A DNA stretch of 64,000 nucleotides from Eledone cirrhosa. Taxonomy: Eukaryota. Position 1 is the first letter of the stretch. Every line of letters begins with the position of its first letter. Below are positions 1,664 to 53,770 of the stretch, one piece after another. A program made the translations under genes and the position numbers. The notes under the pieces were generated by a model that worked only from the letters and a program-made list of their open reading frames with translations, was not told the DNA's origin and made no database searches. The stretch is from the NCBI GenBank assembly GCA_964016885.1, contig OZ024759.1:23746001-23810000 (forward strand), written 5' to 3'.

Positions 1664-1867
1664 ATTCCTTTCAACTAAACTGTATCCATTCAAATCTTTC
1701 TATTTTTCTCCGGATTACTTTTGGAACTACAACTGGAACCGTCGAGCAAACTCTACGTGAGCTGATAATCTACTGTGTGTAATATTTATATTACAACACA
1801 ACGGAAAAAACTGTATATTTACCTCCTGTAAAGTCGAGCAACCCACACAGCAAACGCAACCACAACA

Positions 1868-4188
1868 ATGGAAAAACACTACCTGGATATGTCACTCAAA
1901 AACATACCAACCCAAGGTAGAAAGGAATATTTATTGAGCATGATTCAAAAAACTAATGAATTCATTCGACGTGTCAGGTGGAAAACGCTCCACTATGATA
2001 GAAGCCGTATGAACTCAACATTAGAAAGTGGTGTAAACAAAAAATTCGGTTTTAGGACTTGTAAAAACCCACCCACCAACCCACTATTAGATGCATTTGA
2101 GCAGGACCTTATGAACTTAATCCTTAAAATTAAATTCAAAGGACGCAACACCAACAGCAAATTACAGAAAGATATAAAAAAACTACTGGACGACCTTAAA
2201 AACACCAAAGGAATTGTAGTAAAAGCGGACAAAACATCAAACCTGTACACTATGGATTGCACTACATACAACAACTTCATTCGAAAAGAATTACATAAAA
2301 AATATAGAAAAACGAGTGAAGTAACCCTTAAGCACATCAATGATGAGGCATGCGAAATAGTGAAAAATCTCGGAATCGAAGATAGGACAGGACCACTCTT
2401 ACCGGCGGTACCCACTTTCAATCTTAAGGACCACAAGGTAAACTTTGATAATGACCCTAAAATTAGATTAATCTGCCCCTCTAAATCAGATATAGGTAAA
2501 ATAAGCAAATATATCTTAGATAGAATCATCCCCCAAATTAAGGCTAAGGTTAACATTAAACTCTGGGGGAAGACCCAAGAAGCAATAAGATGGTTTAATA
2601 GCATTAGCAATAAGAATAAATCTAAGTTTATCCAGTTTGATATCGATGAATATTACTCATCGATATCACCTGAAACTTTGAATAGAGCCATTAAGTTTGC
2701 TAAGGATAACTCCGACCTTACAAACGATGAAATTAAGATTATATTAGAAGCTAGGAAAACTATAGTCAAATTTGAGAACAGTTATTGGGTACGTAAAGAT
2801 AGACCCTCTAACTTTGACATAACAATGGGCTCTTAACGATTCGGCGGAAATAACTGATATTGTGGGGTTATTTATCGCCTTTAGACTCCAGAAAATTCAG
2901 CAATCTCCACGGCGGAATATACCGCGACGATGTTCTCCTCCTAGCTAAAAACCTTAATAACCAAAAACTAGAAAAACTACGCAAAGATATAAGAAAACTA
3001 CTACTCGAAATAGGACTAACTATAACATATGAATACAACCTTAAAGTAGTTAACTTCCTGGATGTCACACTCAATTTAAACTCTGGTTTGATTAAACCGT
3101 TTCATAAATTGAATGAAAATCTCAAATACGTAAATGTTGGGTCTAACCACCCCATCTCTATAATTAAATCTATCCCTAAAAATATTTCCCTTAGAATCTC
3201 GAGTCTATCTTCTAACATACAAGTATTTAAGGAACACGCCGAGTACTACGATAACGCCCTTAGTAAAGCAGGCTACCTCAACAAAATAGAGTACATAGAT
3301 GGGAACAATCAAAACACCCAAAATAAATCCCACATAGGTAGATATAATAACACAACACCAAACCACACTTACTACCATAGTATGCACACCAGTAAACCAA
3401 CAAACAAAACTAATAGAAAGCGATGCAAAGAGTACTTATGGTATAACCCCGAATACAATAGCTCCATTAGTACAAATTTACCAGTACTCTTCTTTAAAAT
3501 AATTAAAAGACATTTTCCCACATCACACAAATACCACAAAATCCTAAACCCTACCACTATAAGACTGTCATACTCTACAGCGTTAAACCTTGAACAACAC
3601 ATAAAAAGATCAATACTAGAAGGTTAAACGAAAACACTAAGAACTTAAGTACAAAGAACACAAAAAAAACAGTAGACAATACACTACAGAACATAAATAA
3701 ACCACACCTAAGTTCGTCCGCAATACTACTCCAGAGAAAACCCAACGTACACAACTGTAACTGCACCTATCCTGACAACTGCCCCCTCGGCAATAACTGC
3801 CTGGAAAAAAATATTATTTATAAGTGTACCATTAAATCCGGAGGCAACGAGTGGTATTACGTGGGATCAACGGCAACATCGTTTAAATCTCGATTGTATA
3901 GGCATTCTTACTCAATAAAACACCAGAGCCAAAGAAATGTAACAACTTTAGCAGAAAAAGCTTGGACGCTCAGGGATAGCAATCAAAAGTTTACCCTAAA
4001 ATAGGAAAAATTAGCTAAAACCCTGAGCTTTTCCAGGAGCCAAAATTTCTGCAAATTGTGTAATCTTGAGATTTATTACATAATCACACACAAGAAGAAA
4101 CTGCTGAATAACAGAATTGAACGAACATTATTCTGCCGTCACAGAACTAAAACCCTTTTTTTCCCACTACAAGCAGAATATTACATAA
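1868..4188 (+). pseudogene. PLE ORF (RT + GIY-YIG endonuclease), disrupted by frameshifts and a stop
   Basis: Motifs KADKT, IRLICP, FDIDEYYSSI, ITMGS, IYRDD, FLDV, then CNCx5C, IIYKC..YVGST, CKLC and CRHR. Relative to the copy at 14320-15831 there are 1-nt indels near 2833, 2890, 3605 and 4160, and TGG>TAG near 4002. Confidence 0.9.
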
Positions 4189-7601: not shown

Positions 7602-7769
7602 GTATATATATATATAATAATTATTTCACGTTGCTCCTTCTACCTGGAGTTGCGACCGATAGATAGTATTAGCAATTGGAAAGACCAACGGAAACATTGT
7701 TTCCTCGGTCCGATTTGACGAAAGTCGATCGATAAAAAAAATATATATATATACATATATATAAGTTAT

Positions 7770-7955
7770 TCCGGGTTGAATCGGAGGTAACTACAGTAAA
7801 TAAGGTACTCAATACATAGCAGAGTATAAATGTTTTAATATAGAAGAGCTTCTACAGGACTAGAACTGTTTCATTCGTGAGAAATCATCAGGAAGCTCCT
7901 GATGATATCTCATGAATGAAACAGTTCTATTCCTGCAGAAGCTCTTCTATATTAA
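7770..7955. mobile_element. Short non-coding PLE-type insertion: tail plus inverted pair of hammerheads
   Basis: Palindrome ~7835-7955 centred on ggaAGCtcc; same layout and upstream tail as 32860-33054. Confidence 0.75.
7847..7897 (-). ncRNA. Type I hammerhead ribozyme
   Basis: Minus strand reads agcttc-CTGATGA-tttctcacgaat-GAAAC-ag-ttctagtc-ct-GTA-gaagct, with a 6-bp stem I. The plus-strand mirror (7894-7943) has GCA instead of GTA. Confidence 0.82.
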
Positions 7956-8095: not shown

Positions 8096-9516
8096 CACTC
8101 TCAAGCCACATACAACAACCTAGCCTTTGAACATCTAAGCGACAATGAACTATATACAGAGATCCCGGACATGACTGCAGCCCAGATCGAAAAACAGACC
8201 AACTCCATCTGGTCCGACATCTGAAGGAGAAGACAACCCCCAAATAAAGTTAAGCTCAACTATACCACTAGAAATAGCAGACTTCCCACTTTCTACCACC
8301 TCATCAAGACCCACAAGAATAGTACTAAGATCCATCGTCTCTAACATAGTAGGACCCCTATACAAAATCTCCTGGCTCCTCTCCCAGGTCCTCAAGCCTC
8401 TACTCTCCACCTTTCCCGGGCATGTCAGTAGCTCCGACGAAGTCATATGTAGACTACACCAACTCCAGCCAGAACAACTTAAACTAAATAGATACGCCTT
8501 TAGCCTCGACGTTGTCTCCCTCTACACTACAGTCCCCGCTCACCCAGCTGTTGATTTATTGGTGGACTGCGTGATCGCAGAGGACATCCACTACTACGGC
8601 CTCCATCCGACGGACGTACACCAACTTTTGTCCTTCACAGTGGACAACACGTACGTCACCTTCCACCACCACACATACAGACAGTCCCTACTGGACTTCC
8701 AACTCAGGATAACAGAGGAAGGCAACATCCACACCTGCTTCTATAAAAAAAAGCCGCCAGTAGGGACCTGTTCTTACATTTCAGACCCCCCCCCCCCCAG
8801 CCACCGCTAAGTTCGGATACATAAGGACGAACTAACACGTATCCGGAACAAATGCACCGACGCTAGAGACCGAGACACACACCACACATTTCCTGGAAGT
8901 ACTCAAACTGAACGGATACACGACATCCACCACAAACCGTGCTAGAAAGAACTGGACACCACACCCGAGGCACTAACACTTGCTTCCTGAAGCTCCCACA
9001 CTTCAGTGATGAAACAACAACAGCCATCCGCAGAGCTATCAGACGAGAGGGACTAGATATCCAACTGGCCCACTCAGGACCTTCTCTACGCGGACAGCTA
9101 ACCAAAAGACACTCCACCAGACATGACAACCGCTGCAGGCTAGCCAACTGCCCCATCAACGACACAGACCTATGCCACCAGGCTTACGTCGTATACAAAC
9201 TAGAGTGCGACAAATGCAGCAACTTCTACGTAGGTAGCACCACCATACCACTCCACATAAGAATAAAAGAACACCTCAATACTAACGCTTCCTCATTTAA
9301 GAAACACCTAGTGAAATCCAAAAACACCGACAAAACCATAACAGTTAGGATAGAAACTAAGGAAAGAAACCTCGGCAATCTTAGAATTAAGGAAGCACTA
9401 ATTATAGACAAAACACAACCACCAATCAATAATAGACTAGAACTCAACACCCAATTTATAACTTGATAGAGCATCTAGCCCCATAATTACCCCCCCCCTA
9501 CCCCCCCACACACACG

Positions 9517-13567: not shown

Positions 13568-14040
13568 CATATATACATACACATACATATACACATATAT
13601 ACATACACATATATATATAAGCACTTTAATACATGAATACACTTACATCTAACTATACACATCAAACATATATATATATTTACTTATTTATATACATTTT
13701 CACATATATATACATACTTATGGACGTTTTTAGACACATTCATTATCGCATATTTGTACCTATTCTCATCAGCATATCTTTTCATTATTAGTATGGTAAT
13801 TTAAGGTTATTAATATATGTTGAGAAGAGATTGTTTTTATATTTTTCTAACTAGATTAAGGTTTATATAGTTGGGGGATGTCCCTCTTTTATGTAATATT
13901 CGGCTTGTAGTGGGAAAAAAGGGTTTTAGTTCTGTGACGGCAGAATAATGTTCGTTCAATTCTGTTATTCAGCAGTTTCTTCTTGTGTGTGATTATGTAA
14001 TAAATCTCAAGATTACATAATTTGCAGAAATTTTGGCTCC

Positions 14041-15831
14041 TTACCGGCGGTACCCACCTTCAATCTTAAGGACCACAAGGTAAACTTTGATAATGACCCT
14101 AAAATTAGATTAATCTGCCCCTCTAAATCAGATATAGGTAAAATAAGCAAATATATCTTAGATAGAATCATCCCCCAAATTAAGGCTAAGGTTAACATTA
14201 AACTCTGGGGGAAGACCCAAGAAGCAATAAGATGGTTTAATAGCATTAGCAATAAGAATAAATCTAAGTTTATCCAGTTTGATATCGATGAATATTACTC
14301 ATCGATATCACCTGAAACTTTGAATAGAGCCATTAAGTTTGCTAAGGATAACTCCGACCTTACAAACGATGAAATTAAGATTATATTAGAAGCTAGGAAA
14401 ACTATAGTCAAATTTGAGAACAGTTATTGGGTACGTAAAGATAGACCCTCTAACTTTGACATAACAATGGGCTCTAACGATTCGGCGGAAATAACTGATA
14501 TTGTGGGGTTATTTATCGCCTTTAGACTCCAGGAAAAATTCAGCAATCTCCACGGCGGAATATACCGCGACGATGTTCTCCTCCTAGCTAAAAACCTTAA
14601 TAACCAAAAACTAGAAAAACTACGCAAAGATATAAGAAAACTACTACTCGAAATAGGACTAACTATAACATATGAATACAACCTTAAAGTAGTTAACTTC
14701 CTGGATGTCACACTCAATTTAAACTCTGGTTTGATTAAACCGTTTCATAAATTGAATGAAAATCTCAAATACGTAAATGTTGGGTCTAACCACCCCATCT
14801 CTATAATTAAATCTATCCCTAAAAATATTTCCCTTAGAATCTCGAGTCTATCTTCTAACATACAAGTATTTAAGGAACACGCCGAGTACTACGATAACGC
14901 CCTTAGTAAAGCAGGCTACCTCAACAAAATAGAGTACATAGATGGGAACAATCAAAACACCCAAAATAAATCCCACATAGGTAGATATAATAACACAACA
15001 CCAAACCACACTTACTACCATAGTATGCACACCAGTAAACCAACAAACAAAACTAATAGAAAGCGATGCAAAGAGTACTTATGGTATAACCCCGAATACA
15101 ATAGCTCCATTAGTACAAATTTACCAGTACTCTTCTTTAAAATAATTAAAAGACATTTTCCCACATCACACAAATACCACAAAATCCTAAACCCTACCAC
15201 TATAAGACTGTCATACTCTACAGCGTTAAACCTTGAACAACACATAAAAAAGATCAATACTAGAAGGTTAAACGAAAACACTAAGAACTTAAGTACAAAG
15301 AACACAAAAAAAACAGTAGACAATACACTACAGAACATAAATAAACCACACCTAAGTTCGTCCGCAATACTACTCCAGAGAAAACCCAACGTACACAACT
15401 GTAACTGCACCTATCCTGACAACTGCCCCCTCGGCAATAACTGCCTGGAAAAAAATATTATTTATAAGTGTACCATTAAATCCGGAGGCAACGAGTGGTA
15501 TTACGTGGGATCAACGGCAACATCGTTTAAATCTCGATTGTATAGGCATTCTTACTCAATAAAACACCAGAGCCAAAGAAATGTAACAACTTTAGCAGAA
15601 AAAGCTTGGACGCTCAGGGATAGCGACCAAAAGTTTACCCTAAAATGGGAAAAATTAGCTAAAACCCAAAGCTTTTCCAGGAGCCAAAATTTCTGCAAAT
15701 TATGTAATCTTGAGATTTATTACATAATCACACACAAGAAGAAACTGCTGAATAACAGAATTGAACGAACATTATTCTGCCGTCACAGAACTAAAACCCT
15801 TTTTTCCCACTACAAGCCGAATATTACATAA
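14041..15831 (+). CDS. PLE RT + GIY-YIG ORF, open frame but 5'-truncated
   Basis: Track ORF 14320-15831 (503 aa) has ITMGS, IYRDD, CNCx5C, YVGST, CKLC and CRHR. The frame continues upstream to the inversion junction. Confidence 0.85.
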   Translation, partial: LPAVPTFNLKDHKVNFDNDPKIRLICPSKSDIGKISKYILDRIIPQIKAKVNIKLWGKTQEAIRWFNSISNKNKSKFIQFDIDEYYSSISPETLNRAIKFAKDNSDLTNDEIKIILEARKTIVKFENSYWVRKDRPSNFDITMGSNDSAEITDIVGLFIAFRLQEKFSNLHGGIYRDDVLLLAKNLNNQKLEKLRKDIRKLLLEIGLTITYEYNLKVVNFLDVTLNLNSGLIKPFHKLNENLKYVNVGSNHPISIIKSIPKNISLRISSLSSNIQVFKEHAEYYDNALSKAGYLNKIEYIDGNNQNTQNKSHIGRYNNTTPNHTYYHSMHTSKPTNKTNRKRCKEYLWYNPEYNSSISTNLPVLFFKIIKRHFPTSHKYHKILNPTTIRLSYSTALNLEQHIKKINTRRLNENTKNLSTKNTKKTVDNTLQNINKPHLSSSAILLQRKPNVHNCNCTYPDNCPLGNNCLEKNIIYKCTIKSGGNEWYYVGSTATSFKSRLYRHSYSIKHQSQRNVTTLAEKAWTLRDSDQKFTLKWEKLAKTQSFSRSQNFCKLCNLEIYYIITHKKKLLNNRIERTLFCRHRTKTLFSHYKPNIT

Positions 15832-22042: not shown

Positions 22043-22136
<94 letters not shown>

Positions 22137-22169
22137 ACATATACATATACATATATATATATGTACACA

Positions 22170-22360
22170 TCTATCTATCTAAGGCGGGTAAAATTCCCGA
22201 GATCCATGGACGAGTTCTCTCCAGCGGTCTCTGTCCCTCATTATCGCTGCCATATCCTGCATCTCCAACAGACCAGTGTCTGTCCTTAGGGCATCAACAT
22301 ATGTTAACCTTGGTCTTCCCCTTCTAGTGTGTCCATGTAGGGGCTCCCAAAGGAGTACTG
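22170..22360 (-). mobile_element. 3' end of another RTE-like LINE (mirror copy at 25550-25740, +)
   Basis: LLWEP.HG..RRGRP..TYVD.L..DTG..DRDRWR followed by an (ATAG)n tail. Confidence 0.7.
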
Positions 22361-22446
22361 AATGTATATATATATGTACACATATATATATACATATAAA
22401 TGAAAGGTATAGAAATTGTTTTAGCGAGAAGCTAACAGTATTTCAT

Positions 22447-25458
<3,012 letters not shown>

Positions 25459-25462
<4 letters not shown>

Positions 25463-25772
25463 ATGAAATACTGTTAGCTTCTCGCTAAAACAATTTCTAT
25501 ACCTTTCATTTATATGTATATATATATGTGTACATATATATATACATTCAGTGCTCCTTTGGGAGCCCCTACATGGACACACTAGAAGGGGAAGACCAAG
25601 GTTAACATATGTTGATGCCCTAAGGACAGACACTGGTCTGTTGGAGATGCAGGATATGGCAGCGATAATGAGGGACAGAGACCGCCGGAGAGAACTCGTC
25701 CATGGATCTCGGGAATTTTACCCGCCTTAGATAGATAGATGTGTACATATATATATATGTATATGTATATGT

Positions 25773-25854
<82 letters not shown>

Positions 25855-32400: not shown

Positions 32401-32488
32401 ATATCCACCTGTCTCTCTCTATATATATATATTTATATATATAAAGATAAATAAAAAGTCAAATGATTAAAATTTAGCTTCGTTTATT

Positions 32489-32543
32489 ACTACTATATAT
32501 ATTTCAGTGACAGCCATCTTTGGCTGTGACCTCTTCAGGCAGT
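32489..32543 (-). ncRNA. Type I hammerhead with TATATA stem III
   Basis: Minus strand reads actgc-CTGAAGA-ggtcacagcca(aaga)tggctgtcact-GAAA-tatata-TA-gtagt. Confidence 0.75.
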
Positions 32544-32659
32544 TTGAATTAGTATGGTATAGACAAGTACATATGTTGTTGAGGTGTATAATATTGTCAA
32601 TACTCTGATATGCCCAGTTCCTGGCTGGGTTGTCATTTCATTGAGGAACTGGAATCATA

Positions 32660-32720
<61 letters not shown>

Positions 32721-32791: not shown

Positions 32792-32854
<63 letters not shown>

Positions 32855-32940
32855 GTAGGTCCCGGGTTGAGTCGGGGATAACCACAGTAAGTAAGGTACT
32901 CAATACATGGCAGAGTAAAATTTTTTTATTTTATAGAAGG

Positions 32941-32991
32941 AGCTTCTACAGGACTAGTACTGTTTCATTCAGATGAAATCTTCAGGAAGCT
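32941..32991 (-). ncRNA. Type I hammerhead ribozyme with a complete canonical core
   Basis: Minus strand reads agcttc-CTGAAGA-tttcatctgaat-GAAAC-ag-tactagtc-ct-GTA-gaagct. Confidence 0.85.
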
Positions 32992-33037
32992 CCTGAAGAT
33001 TTCATCTGAATGAAACAGTACTAGTCCTGTAGAAGCT
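32988..33037 (+). ncRNA. Type I hammerhead ribozyme, mirror copy, sense to the host intron
   Basis: agctc-CTGAAGA(32993)...GAAAC(33012)...GTA(33029-31)-gaagct. Confidence 0.8.
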
Positions 33038-33585
33038 CCTTCTATAAAATAAAATATATATATATATATATATATATATTAGAGAGAGAGAGAGAGAGAG
33101 AGAGAGTGACAGGTGGAAAAGAAAACGAGTGCATTGGGGGCGTTGTCTGGTTTACAGTATGAGGCGAGGCCGGGGAGAGAGAGAGAAATAGTTCTGGTTT
33201 TCGTCAGGATCGGGATTTAACAATTCGGCGCTTATGATTTTATCAATTTGATCTGAAAATTTCAAAGACTGGTAAAACGACTTCAACTGATCTACAGGTT
33301 AAACCGAATCTAGACTTTTGTGGCACACACACACAGCCTCTCTCTCTGAATGTGCGGTCTAATTCAGTTTCTTCTACTCCGCTATAAACTTCTCTCTGTG
33401 TCTCTACCCCCTCTCTCTCTCTTCTTTGAATATCTAACGCTTTAATTGTATCTATCTCTGTCTAACGGCCTATCTCTCTCTCTCTGCTTCTCCCTCTGTG
33501 ACGCTCTCTCTTTCTCTCTATCTCTATCTAACGCTTTAATTGTATCTCTCTGTCTAACGACCTATATATATATATATATATATAT

Positions 33586-48169: not shown

Positions 48170-48317
48170 GGAACAAGTAAGACTCCGACGGCAGAGCTCA
48201 AGCCGTTTCGACGACTAATTCTGGAACAATATTTTGTTCCTATTACCCACTCTACTACCCTAAGTATTGAGTACTTTAGTGCATTATGGTCCATCTGGTT
48301 CCTTACCACATTTCCTT

Positions 48318-48437
<120 letters not shown>

Positions 48438-53451: not shown

Positions 53452-53727
53452 TAACAAAGGAATTGTGGTAAGGAACCAGATGGACTATAAAAAAAAAAAG
53501 AAAAAATTCAGTGTTGTCAAAAAATTTACTTTCACTTTCCGGAACGCCCGTCTTAACGTATGCCCTATAACGCACCAGAGTACTCAATACTTAGGGTAGT
53601 AGAGTGGGAAATAGGAAAAAGTATGACCCCGACGGCAGAGCTCAAGCTGTTTCGACGGCTATTTCTGGACTAGTCCAGAAATAGCCGTCGAAACGGATTG
53701 AGCTCTGCCGTCGGGGTCATACTTTTT

Positions 53728-53732
<5 letters not shown>
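53452..53732. mobile_element. Short tail + palindrome insertion in TA repeat (related copy 48167-48320)
   Basis: 122-bp loop-less palindrome 53611-53732 centred on ggactagtcc; tail shares gtactcaatac with the ribozyme palindromes. Confidence 0.7.

Positions 53733-53770
<38 letters not shown>

Follow-up and report, generated by a model that had tools for sequence, protein, structure and literature searches.

The short, hammerhead-bearing palindromes of the Eledone cirrhosa genome are promoterless double copies of the 5' part of a Hydra-type Penelope-like element (PLE), joined head-to-head; one copy takes in the first ~135 bases after the TATA box and the other the first ~65. They are likely made anew at each insertion rather than mobile as a unit. 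Two of these stubs, copy B (family B) and copy A (of an older sister family, A), are located in the window, the 64,000-nucleotide stretch of contig OZ024759.1 analyzed here (positions 23,746,001 to 23,810,000, forward strand) from the 3.0-Gb assembly GCA_964016885.1. The coordinates are listed in Table 1.

Palindromes of the window and their parent element

The 131-bp palindrome reported at 32924-33054 in the preliminary description is borne out: its arms (32924-32987 and 32991-33054) are complementary at 64 of 64 positions around a 3-nt AGC loop, with a predicted fold of -108.1 kcal/mol (z -24.6) that none of 200 shuffles equalled. The diverged copy at 7770-7955 likewise has the junction and tail ascribed to it, with arms (7835-7893 and 7897-7955) that are complementary at 55 of 59 positions around the same AGC loop and ~84% identity to copy B across ~190 nt. 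This span includes the ~70-nt tail, which is present on only one arm of each palindrome. The 1-kb flanks of copies A and B do not align, and a segmental duplication that includes them is thus rejected as the origin of the pair; the flanks of copy B match those of 2 of 29 other copies, solely via an unrelated repeat at least 500 nt away. An assembly artefact is unlikely, as hundreds of loci have their own unique flanks and junctions. One listed record covers the centre with at least 31 letters on each side, gapped, and counts for little, as its reads may derive from the source sample.

The claim of a complete hammerhead on each strand holds in part. The core boxes and the GUA site are present in both arms of copy B, but a full stem I (8 bp; hammerhead fold of -14.1 kcal/mol) is found only in the minus-strand arm, the stem I of the plus-strand arm being 2 contiguous bp (fold of +0.8 kcal/mol). 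The elements of a type I hammerhead (CUGANGA, GAAA, NUH, and stems I and III) are present in the minus-strand and source arms. Stem II has 3 bp and is closed by U.U rather than by the G10.1-C11.1 pair of retrozymes and minimal PLE hammerheads, and a search of Rfam at the gathering score gave no hits. A transcript through the palindrome would be predicted to form one 64-bp hairpin that hides both ribozymes.

Table 1. Palindromic insertions, solo arms and short-form loci (positions in the window unless given as loci)
Feature	Position	Strand	Description
Copy B, whole insertion (family B)	32854..33054	.	Two head-to-head arms of a putative Hydra-type PLE transcript 5' end, inside (TA)n
Copy B, tail-bearing arm	32854..32991	-	+1 A at 32991; hammerhead core from 32985
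Copy B, tail-bearing arm, predicted cleavage	between 32947 and 32946	-	Followed by the A-rich stretch and the tail to the fixed distal site
Copy B, tail	32854..32923	-	In the parent, the 5' UTR section between hammerhead and ATG
Copy B, junction	32988..32992	.	32992 is the sense-strand G at -1; the parent has C there
Copy B, tail-less arm	32991..33054	+	Begins at +5, with the hammerhead core from 32993 and the outer end in the proximal, A-rich site
Copy A (older sister family)	7764..7955	.	Same architecture as copy B
Copy A, arms	+1 at 7897 (tail arm); 7897-7955 (tail-less arm)	- (tail arm)	
Family E, solo tail-less arm	32450..32661	-	Adjoins copy B, separate insertion; putative +1 at 32660, extra G at 32661
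Family E, hammerhead core of solo arm	32538	-	122 nt after +1
Family C palindrome	53550..53735 (approximate limits)	.	One-tail, head-to-head layout; no CUGANGA box
+46 short-form loci	L031, L033, L034, L036, L037, L039-L042		

The autonomous PLE partner that the earlier description called for exists at locus L281 (G000:C1:164615500-164623500), where an 814-codon RT/GIY-YIG open reading frame (ORF) is unbroken. In this element the TATA box (2138) is followed after 29 nt by +1, the A (2167) of AGCTTC, and then by the hammerhead, an A-rich stretch, the tail, the 5' UTR, the ORF (ATG at 2351, 184 nt after +1) and a 3' pLTR. The tail sequence continues straight into the 5' UTR, and the ORF has a pLTR on both sides. 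Between +1 and the 3' pLTR the parent measures about 4 kb, and its 3' UTR is rich in microsatellites. Of the eight ORF loci fetched, L282, L283, L286, L287 and L288 also have a pLTR in the ORF orientation; ~25 of 150 scored RT matches are at least 90% identical to the L281 family, and tandem or inverted pLTR arrangements with a one-sided tail are observed in the parent family. A non-palindromic upstream region with a TATA box was first seen at 4 of 15 loci having a non-TA base after the tail, and tracing the TATA-bearing upstream revealed inverted insertions 0.2-6 kb long, in which fragments of the ORF separate the arms, and then L281. Searches for the parent ORF by the extended stem I, the L038 junction (one match) and the non-TA base after the tail found none.

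The organization of the parent, a single RT and C-terminal GIY-YIG ORF between pLTRs, is that of an EN+ PLE, to which it is assigned from its predicted protein. The RT and GIY-YIG identity is taken from motifs; Pfam gives no match to either domain in the L186 copy, and a PDB search gave no match. The motifs include DKT, CxCX5C, YRDD, a YIC...YIG core with one Cys, CxxC and CxH, whereas CCHH (as read from the single Cys in the core) and GxKF/Y are absent. The Hydra clade is described as having DKT, a CxCX5C linker, CxxC, CxH and RWK, no CCHH and no GxKF/Y, in units that tend to be <3 kb (PMC8557442). The parent shares with this clade DKT, CxCX5C, CxxC/CxH, the C-terminal GIY-YIG, the hammerhead core and the (TA)n target, has RWR (residue 38) where the clade has RWK, and differs in its length of ~4 kb and evident pLTRs. 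It is therefore called Hydra-type, from these motifs.

Other PLEs are noted nearby. The broken PLE directly after copy A (8175-9466) is of a different type, with a GIY-YIG Pfam match, and is rejected as the partner since no A or B pLTR follows it. A second Hydra-type family, which is 39% identical to the L281 partner and has RWK, is found at 1832-4004 and 13993-15831, the latter copy with an inverted pLTR on its 5' side; the hammerhead cores associated with this family are at 1552, 5144, 16781 (+) and 13104 (-). A sister family with ~74% RT identity to the parent has many copies with a 758-aa open frame and, to judge from these frames, is probably active.

Junctions and arms across families

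Exact-seed patterns, which give lower bounds, detect 682/684 junction matches of family B genome-wide, corresponding to about 680 junctions, 392/360 of family A, 1,805 tails (mostly B-type) and 512 arms that run on upstream. The 40 top-scoring matches to copy B are 98-100% identical to it over 192-195 nt, and four of these are 100% identical over 195 nt. All 30 inspected matches are in (TA)n with unrelated flanks, and the stub units are single head-to-head insertions, not tandem. Junctions were sampled on one contig by patterns that detect centres of up to 30 nt. The B sample is all 53 loci behind the first 100 junction matches listed, of which 52 are orientable; L099, with a partly deleted tail, is left out. 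For family A, 39 of ~62 listed loci were fetched and 6 that could not be oriented were left out, giving 33. For family E, 26 of 50 listed loci were fetched. A separate tabulation of arm ends leaves out L147 (one of 27).

When tabulated as the preliminary description proposed, the inversion points are heterogeneous, with 35 junction types among 52 B copies and 28 among 33 A copies, yet the arms stop sharply at +1. Among the 104 arms of the B junctions, 36 end exactly at +1 (the A 29 nt after TATA), seven run one base past it, all within partner microhomology or inserts, and none reaches further, although the search pattern allowed it. The junction of copies A and B is identical, as had been claimed, but is merely the commonest of many types, found in 6 of the 52 sampled B copies in this orientation and in 4 in mirror image. 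The tail arm is the longer in 23 B copies, the tail-less arm in 18 and neither in 11 (n = 52; binomial p 0.53 for symmetry); the corresponding counts for family A are 13, 10 and 10 (n = 33). Junctions are formed by 1-4-nt overlaps, blunt joins and inserts no longer than 21 nt, which are frequently copies of neighbouring arm sequence. Such overlaps, blunt joins and templated inserts are expected of microhomology-mediated end joining.

At their outer ends, the arms begin at two fixed 3' sites, the tail end and the A-rich site, with one of each per insertion. The tail end is identical in 50 of 52 B copies, and the outer end of the tail-less arm is ragged, within the A-rich stretch. Two-tailed insertions are absent from the 52 B, 33 A and 50 C loci sampled. 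An unbiased, tail-anchored sample of 30 loci includes 19 short palindromes, 10 promoter-bearing loci and 1 other, and an arm starts at 0..+3 in 16 of its 18 B-type short palindromes. In the long inverted insertions the tailed arm ends at +140 and the tail-less arm near +65; the tailed arm is the longer in several, and in L194 the tail-less arm is longer by ~1 kb. The tail-less arm is also longer, by >40 nt, in L238 and L152, and the two arms of L081, L083 and L096 carry differing extra bases. The stubs are without the parent promoter, having lost the TATA box, and would be dead ends.

At gapped junctions of three families, 20 of 26 arms have a C directly after +1, a position at which G or A would be expected from the parent (p 7e-6 against 1/3, a rough null as templated inserts here often start with C). 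An untemplated G at L1/SVA 5' ends is attributed to the cap (PMC3287187), and the extra C would, within this rough null, be the mark expected from cap copying. The G at 32992 (position -1) of copy B may be a cap-derived base or a base of the partner arm. In 10 of 13 extended-stem-I loci, the tail arm ends instead at +46, immediately past the predicted cleavage site (+45/+46), and is joined to a nearly full partner; the mirror case is absent among the 13. This form, which occurs in two subtypes and has a 6-nt microhomology, accounts for <2% of junctions, and its tail-arm ends may record ribozyme cleavage in vivo or merely the microhomology. A complex insertion, L038, has two tails and 38 nt of parent 5' UTR in tandem with the +1 of another arm, which suggests a template jump.

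Families E and C serve as controls. Family E, which is without a TATA box, has 448 palindromic junctions centred ~120 nt upstream of the hammerhead, with one tailed and one tail-less arm wherever both are readable; 21 of 52 arms end ambiguously, inside a self-complementary overlap. Family C, also found at 48170-48330 of the window, has at least 10,070 palindromic junctions genome-wide, centred ~29 nt after a TATA-like box. It keeps GAAAC (the 3' half of the hammerhead core), a GUC site and a palindromic loop but no CUGANGA box, and has an 11-nt tail motif common to families A and B. One tail is present in 48 of 50 C loci and none in the other 2, and the arm reach is more scattered than in B, with 21 of 104 arms 1-4 nt past +1. 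Because the E centre is far upstream of the ribozyme and C is without an intact core, the position of the junction is tied to the 5' end of the unit rather than to the ribozyme.

The two arms of an insertion share variants more often than expected (5 vs 0.33 in B; 20 vs 8.45 in A), and both arms are of the same subtype in 41 of 50 C loci, compared to a shuffle mean of 14.4 and maximum of 24 (5000 shuffles). Two of the nine C loci scored as different (L291 and L338) are misalignments, and L303 is the only locus with a multi-base subtype mismatch between its arms. Private mismatches rise from 2.2% in B to 6.7% in A, and arm-specific mismatches are not common among loci, except at the ragged end and a CpG site. 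The shared variants indicate that the arms have a single source when inserted and diverge afterwards, which explains the earlier observation, here confirmed, that arm matches arm better than copy matches copy (CTGAAGA in both arms of B, CTGATGA in both arms of A). Arm concordance alone does not separate one RNA copied twice from fold-back. In an A subtype (L229, L235, L257 and L185), both strands of stem I are changed together, from AGCUUC/GAAGCU to AGAUUC/GAAUCU, and the loop of stem II varies among families while its 3 bp are kept; these paired changes and the kept stem are a sign, read from sequence, of selection on the fold.

Formation of the inverted junction

The palindromes are probably formed by double priming, in which each nicked strand of the (TA)n target primes reverse transcription at one of two fixed sites, and the cDNAs reach the capped 5' end of the RNA and are end-joined. 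The +1 site is taken as the likely transcription start of this capped parent RNA. The enzyme would begin synthesis at internal positions close to the 5' end of its own mRNA, yielding short cDNAs; priming would occur at the tail site for one target end and at the A-rich site for the other, the template being either a single RNA or transcripts from one source locus. Both cDNAs would run to the cap within 65-140 nt, after which their 3' ends would anneal, often at the self-complementary AGCT, and be sealed by end joining. The long inverted insertions would result from priming at the downstream pLTR of a read-through RNA. A PLE protein studied in vitro nicks both target strands and extends them, with reverse transcription starting from two adjacent internal sites that delimit the tail (PMC11167929). 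The earlier suggestion that the palindrome is regenerated at each insertion is supported by the number of junction types in B and A and by the promoterless stubs. Points against double priming are the scattered reach of family C, the lack of a TATA box in family E, the two tails of L038 and the two tail-less C loci. That this is the normal integration route of PLEs, with two programmed start sites and joining at the cap, is a tentative proposal, somewhat less probable than its negation.

One alternative is fold-back, in which the tail-primed cDNA, once at the 5' end of the RNA, turns back and is extended on itself until it meets the target end at the A-rich stretch; later repair of a break at the centre would scramble the junction to both sides. 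One tail and no more is the natural outcome of such a course, the ragged tail-less end is in keeping with it, and the near-total arm concordance, with source variants nearly always shared, is predicted by fold-back too. The self-complementary words at +1 (4 nt in B, 8 nt in E) would also favour hairpin priming. By contrast, simple fold-back from a tail-primed cDNA fails, since without a central break a longer tail-less arm is impossible, and this arm is the longer in 18 of 52 B and 10 of 33 A copies and exceeds its partner by the large margins seen in L238, L152 and L194. The young family B is already as varied as described above, as is the older A; the differing extra bases on two arms and the two subtypes of L303 also count against fold-back, which is unlikely. 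Self-priming on an antisense pLTR transcript, the standing proposal for the inverted structures of rotifer Penelopes (PMC3846280), would make the palindrome before integration and predicts both head-to-head geometry and arm identity. It is quite improbable here, as it requires antisense RNA ending at +1 in three families and leaves the sense TATA at -29, the extra G at -1 and the occurrence of both polarities unexplained.

The preliminary description had also considered a junction fixed at the ribozyme boundary and a ~190-nt palindromic unit that is itself mobile. A junction set by the ribozyme, via stem I structure or cleavage, is consistent with +1 being the start of stem I in A and B and with the one-sided +46 ends of the tail arm. 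Cleavage at +45/+46 is, however, away from the main junction, the +46 form has its own microhomology and is rare, and families E and C, in which the ribozyme is distant or incomplete, share the same behaviour; the transcription start fits better, and a ribozyme-set junction is very improbable. The mobile unit, as a non-autonomous element of SINE, MITE or retrozyme type, would account for many near-identical dispersed copies with fixed outer ends, including the four identical matches to copy B. Against it, variation sits at the centre rather than the ends, arm-specific mismatches are not inherited, the unit has no promoter and is not in tandem as a retrozyme-like element would be, one subtype variant occurs in standard, short and long layouts alike, and the layout grades into kb-long inverted PLE insertions. 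Thus, this reading is largely refuted and scarcely credible.

If double priming is true, the >11,000 events in four families form a natural dataset that maps the transcription start of each family, shows cap copying and may, in the +46 tail arms, record ribozyme cleavage in vivo.

Relation to known elements

Inverted pLTRs, one-sided tails and junction palindromes are known in PLEs (PMC3846280, PMC8557442, PMC8969392), and the formation of the inverted structures is called unresolved (PMC8557442). The stubs share with the inverted pLTRs described for EN+ PLEs the head-to-head arms, a tail at one end, an AT-rich target and solo pLTR structures. They differ in being ~200-bp units with hundreds to ten thousand copies per family, in a sharp junction site 29 nt after TATA that is symmetric between the arms, and in a tail of ~70 nt compared to the 30-40 nt described. 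The junctions, countable in their thousands, speak for two cDNAs rather than self-priming and link the point of joining to the promoter. An internal, TATA-less promoter is described for Penelope (PMC2377424).

A biochemical parallel is offered by PAc (Poseidon from Anolis), in which the tail lies between two adjacent internal RT start sites close to the 5' end of the transcript, nicking and extension take place on both target strands, and an upstream hammerhead is dispensable for insertion (PMC11167929). The PAc start sites are inside the ORF, whereas those proposed here are in the 5' UTR, and the available account of the in vitro work offers no explanation of inverted junctions (PMC11167929). 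In L1 twin priming, as proposed here, both target ends act as primers on one RNA and the cDNA ends are joined by microhomology. The two L1 arms, however, mostly derive from different parts of the RNA, with a spurious second primer site (bioRxiv 2024.08.27.596794), whereas the arms of a stub are copies of one and the same stretch, begun at two fixed sites, and together form a palindrome.

Non-LTR retrozymes and minimal PLE hammerheads are, like the stubs, short, PLE-derived and protein-free, with a type I hammerhead and a palindromic loop III (bioRxiv 2026.07.22.740005, PMC4209133). Retrozymes are head-to-tail tandems thought to move via circular RNA, whereas the stubs are head-to-head and promoterless and would form a hairpin. 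Opposite-strand pairs of PLE hammerheads 100-700 bp apart were described in 2014 (PMC4209133). Mass minimal stubs, or a mapping of junctions to start sites, were not found in searches of open-access literature, a result on which Repbase/Dfam, subscription papers, Figs S1-S2 of PMC11167929 and File S2 of PMC8557442 may bear. Many of the dispersed 'hammerheads' and short palindromes of such genomes would be dead-end by-products rather than mobile ribozyme units and, as perfect hairpins, the stubs could feed small-RNA silencing.

Other features of the window include further type I hammerhead-like motifs of other families (45489, 47091 and 49740). The whole-window repeat scan is swamped by (TA)n; a large inverted repeat at 22055-25854 consists of LINE-like RT fragments mirrored about a ~3-kb TA array.
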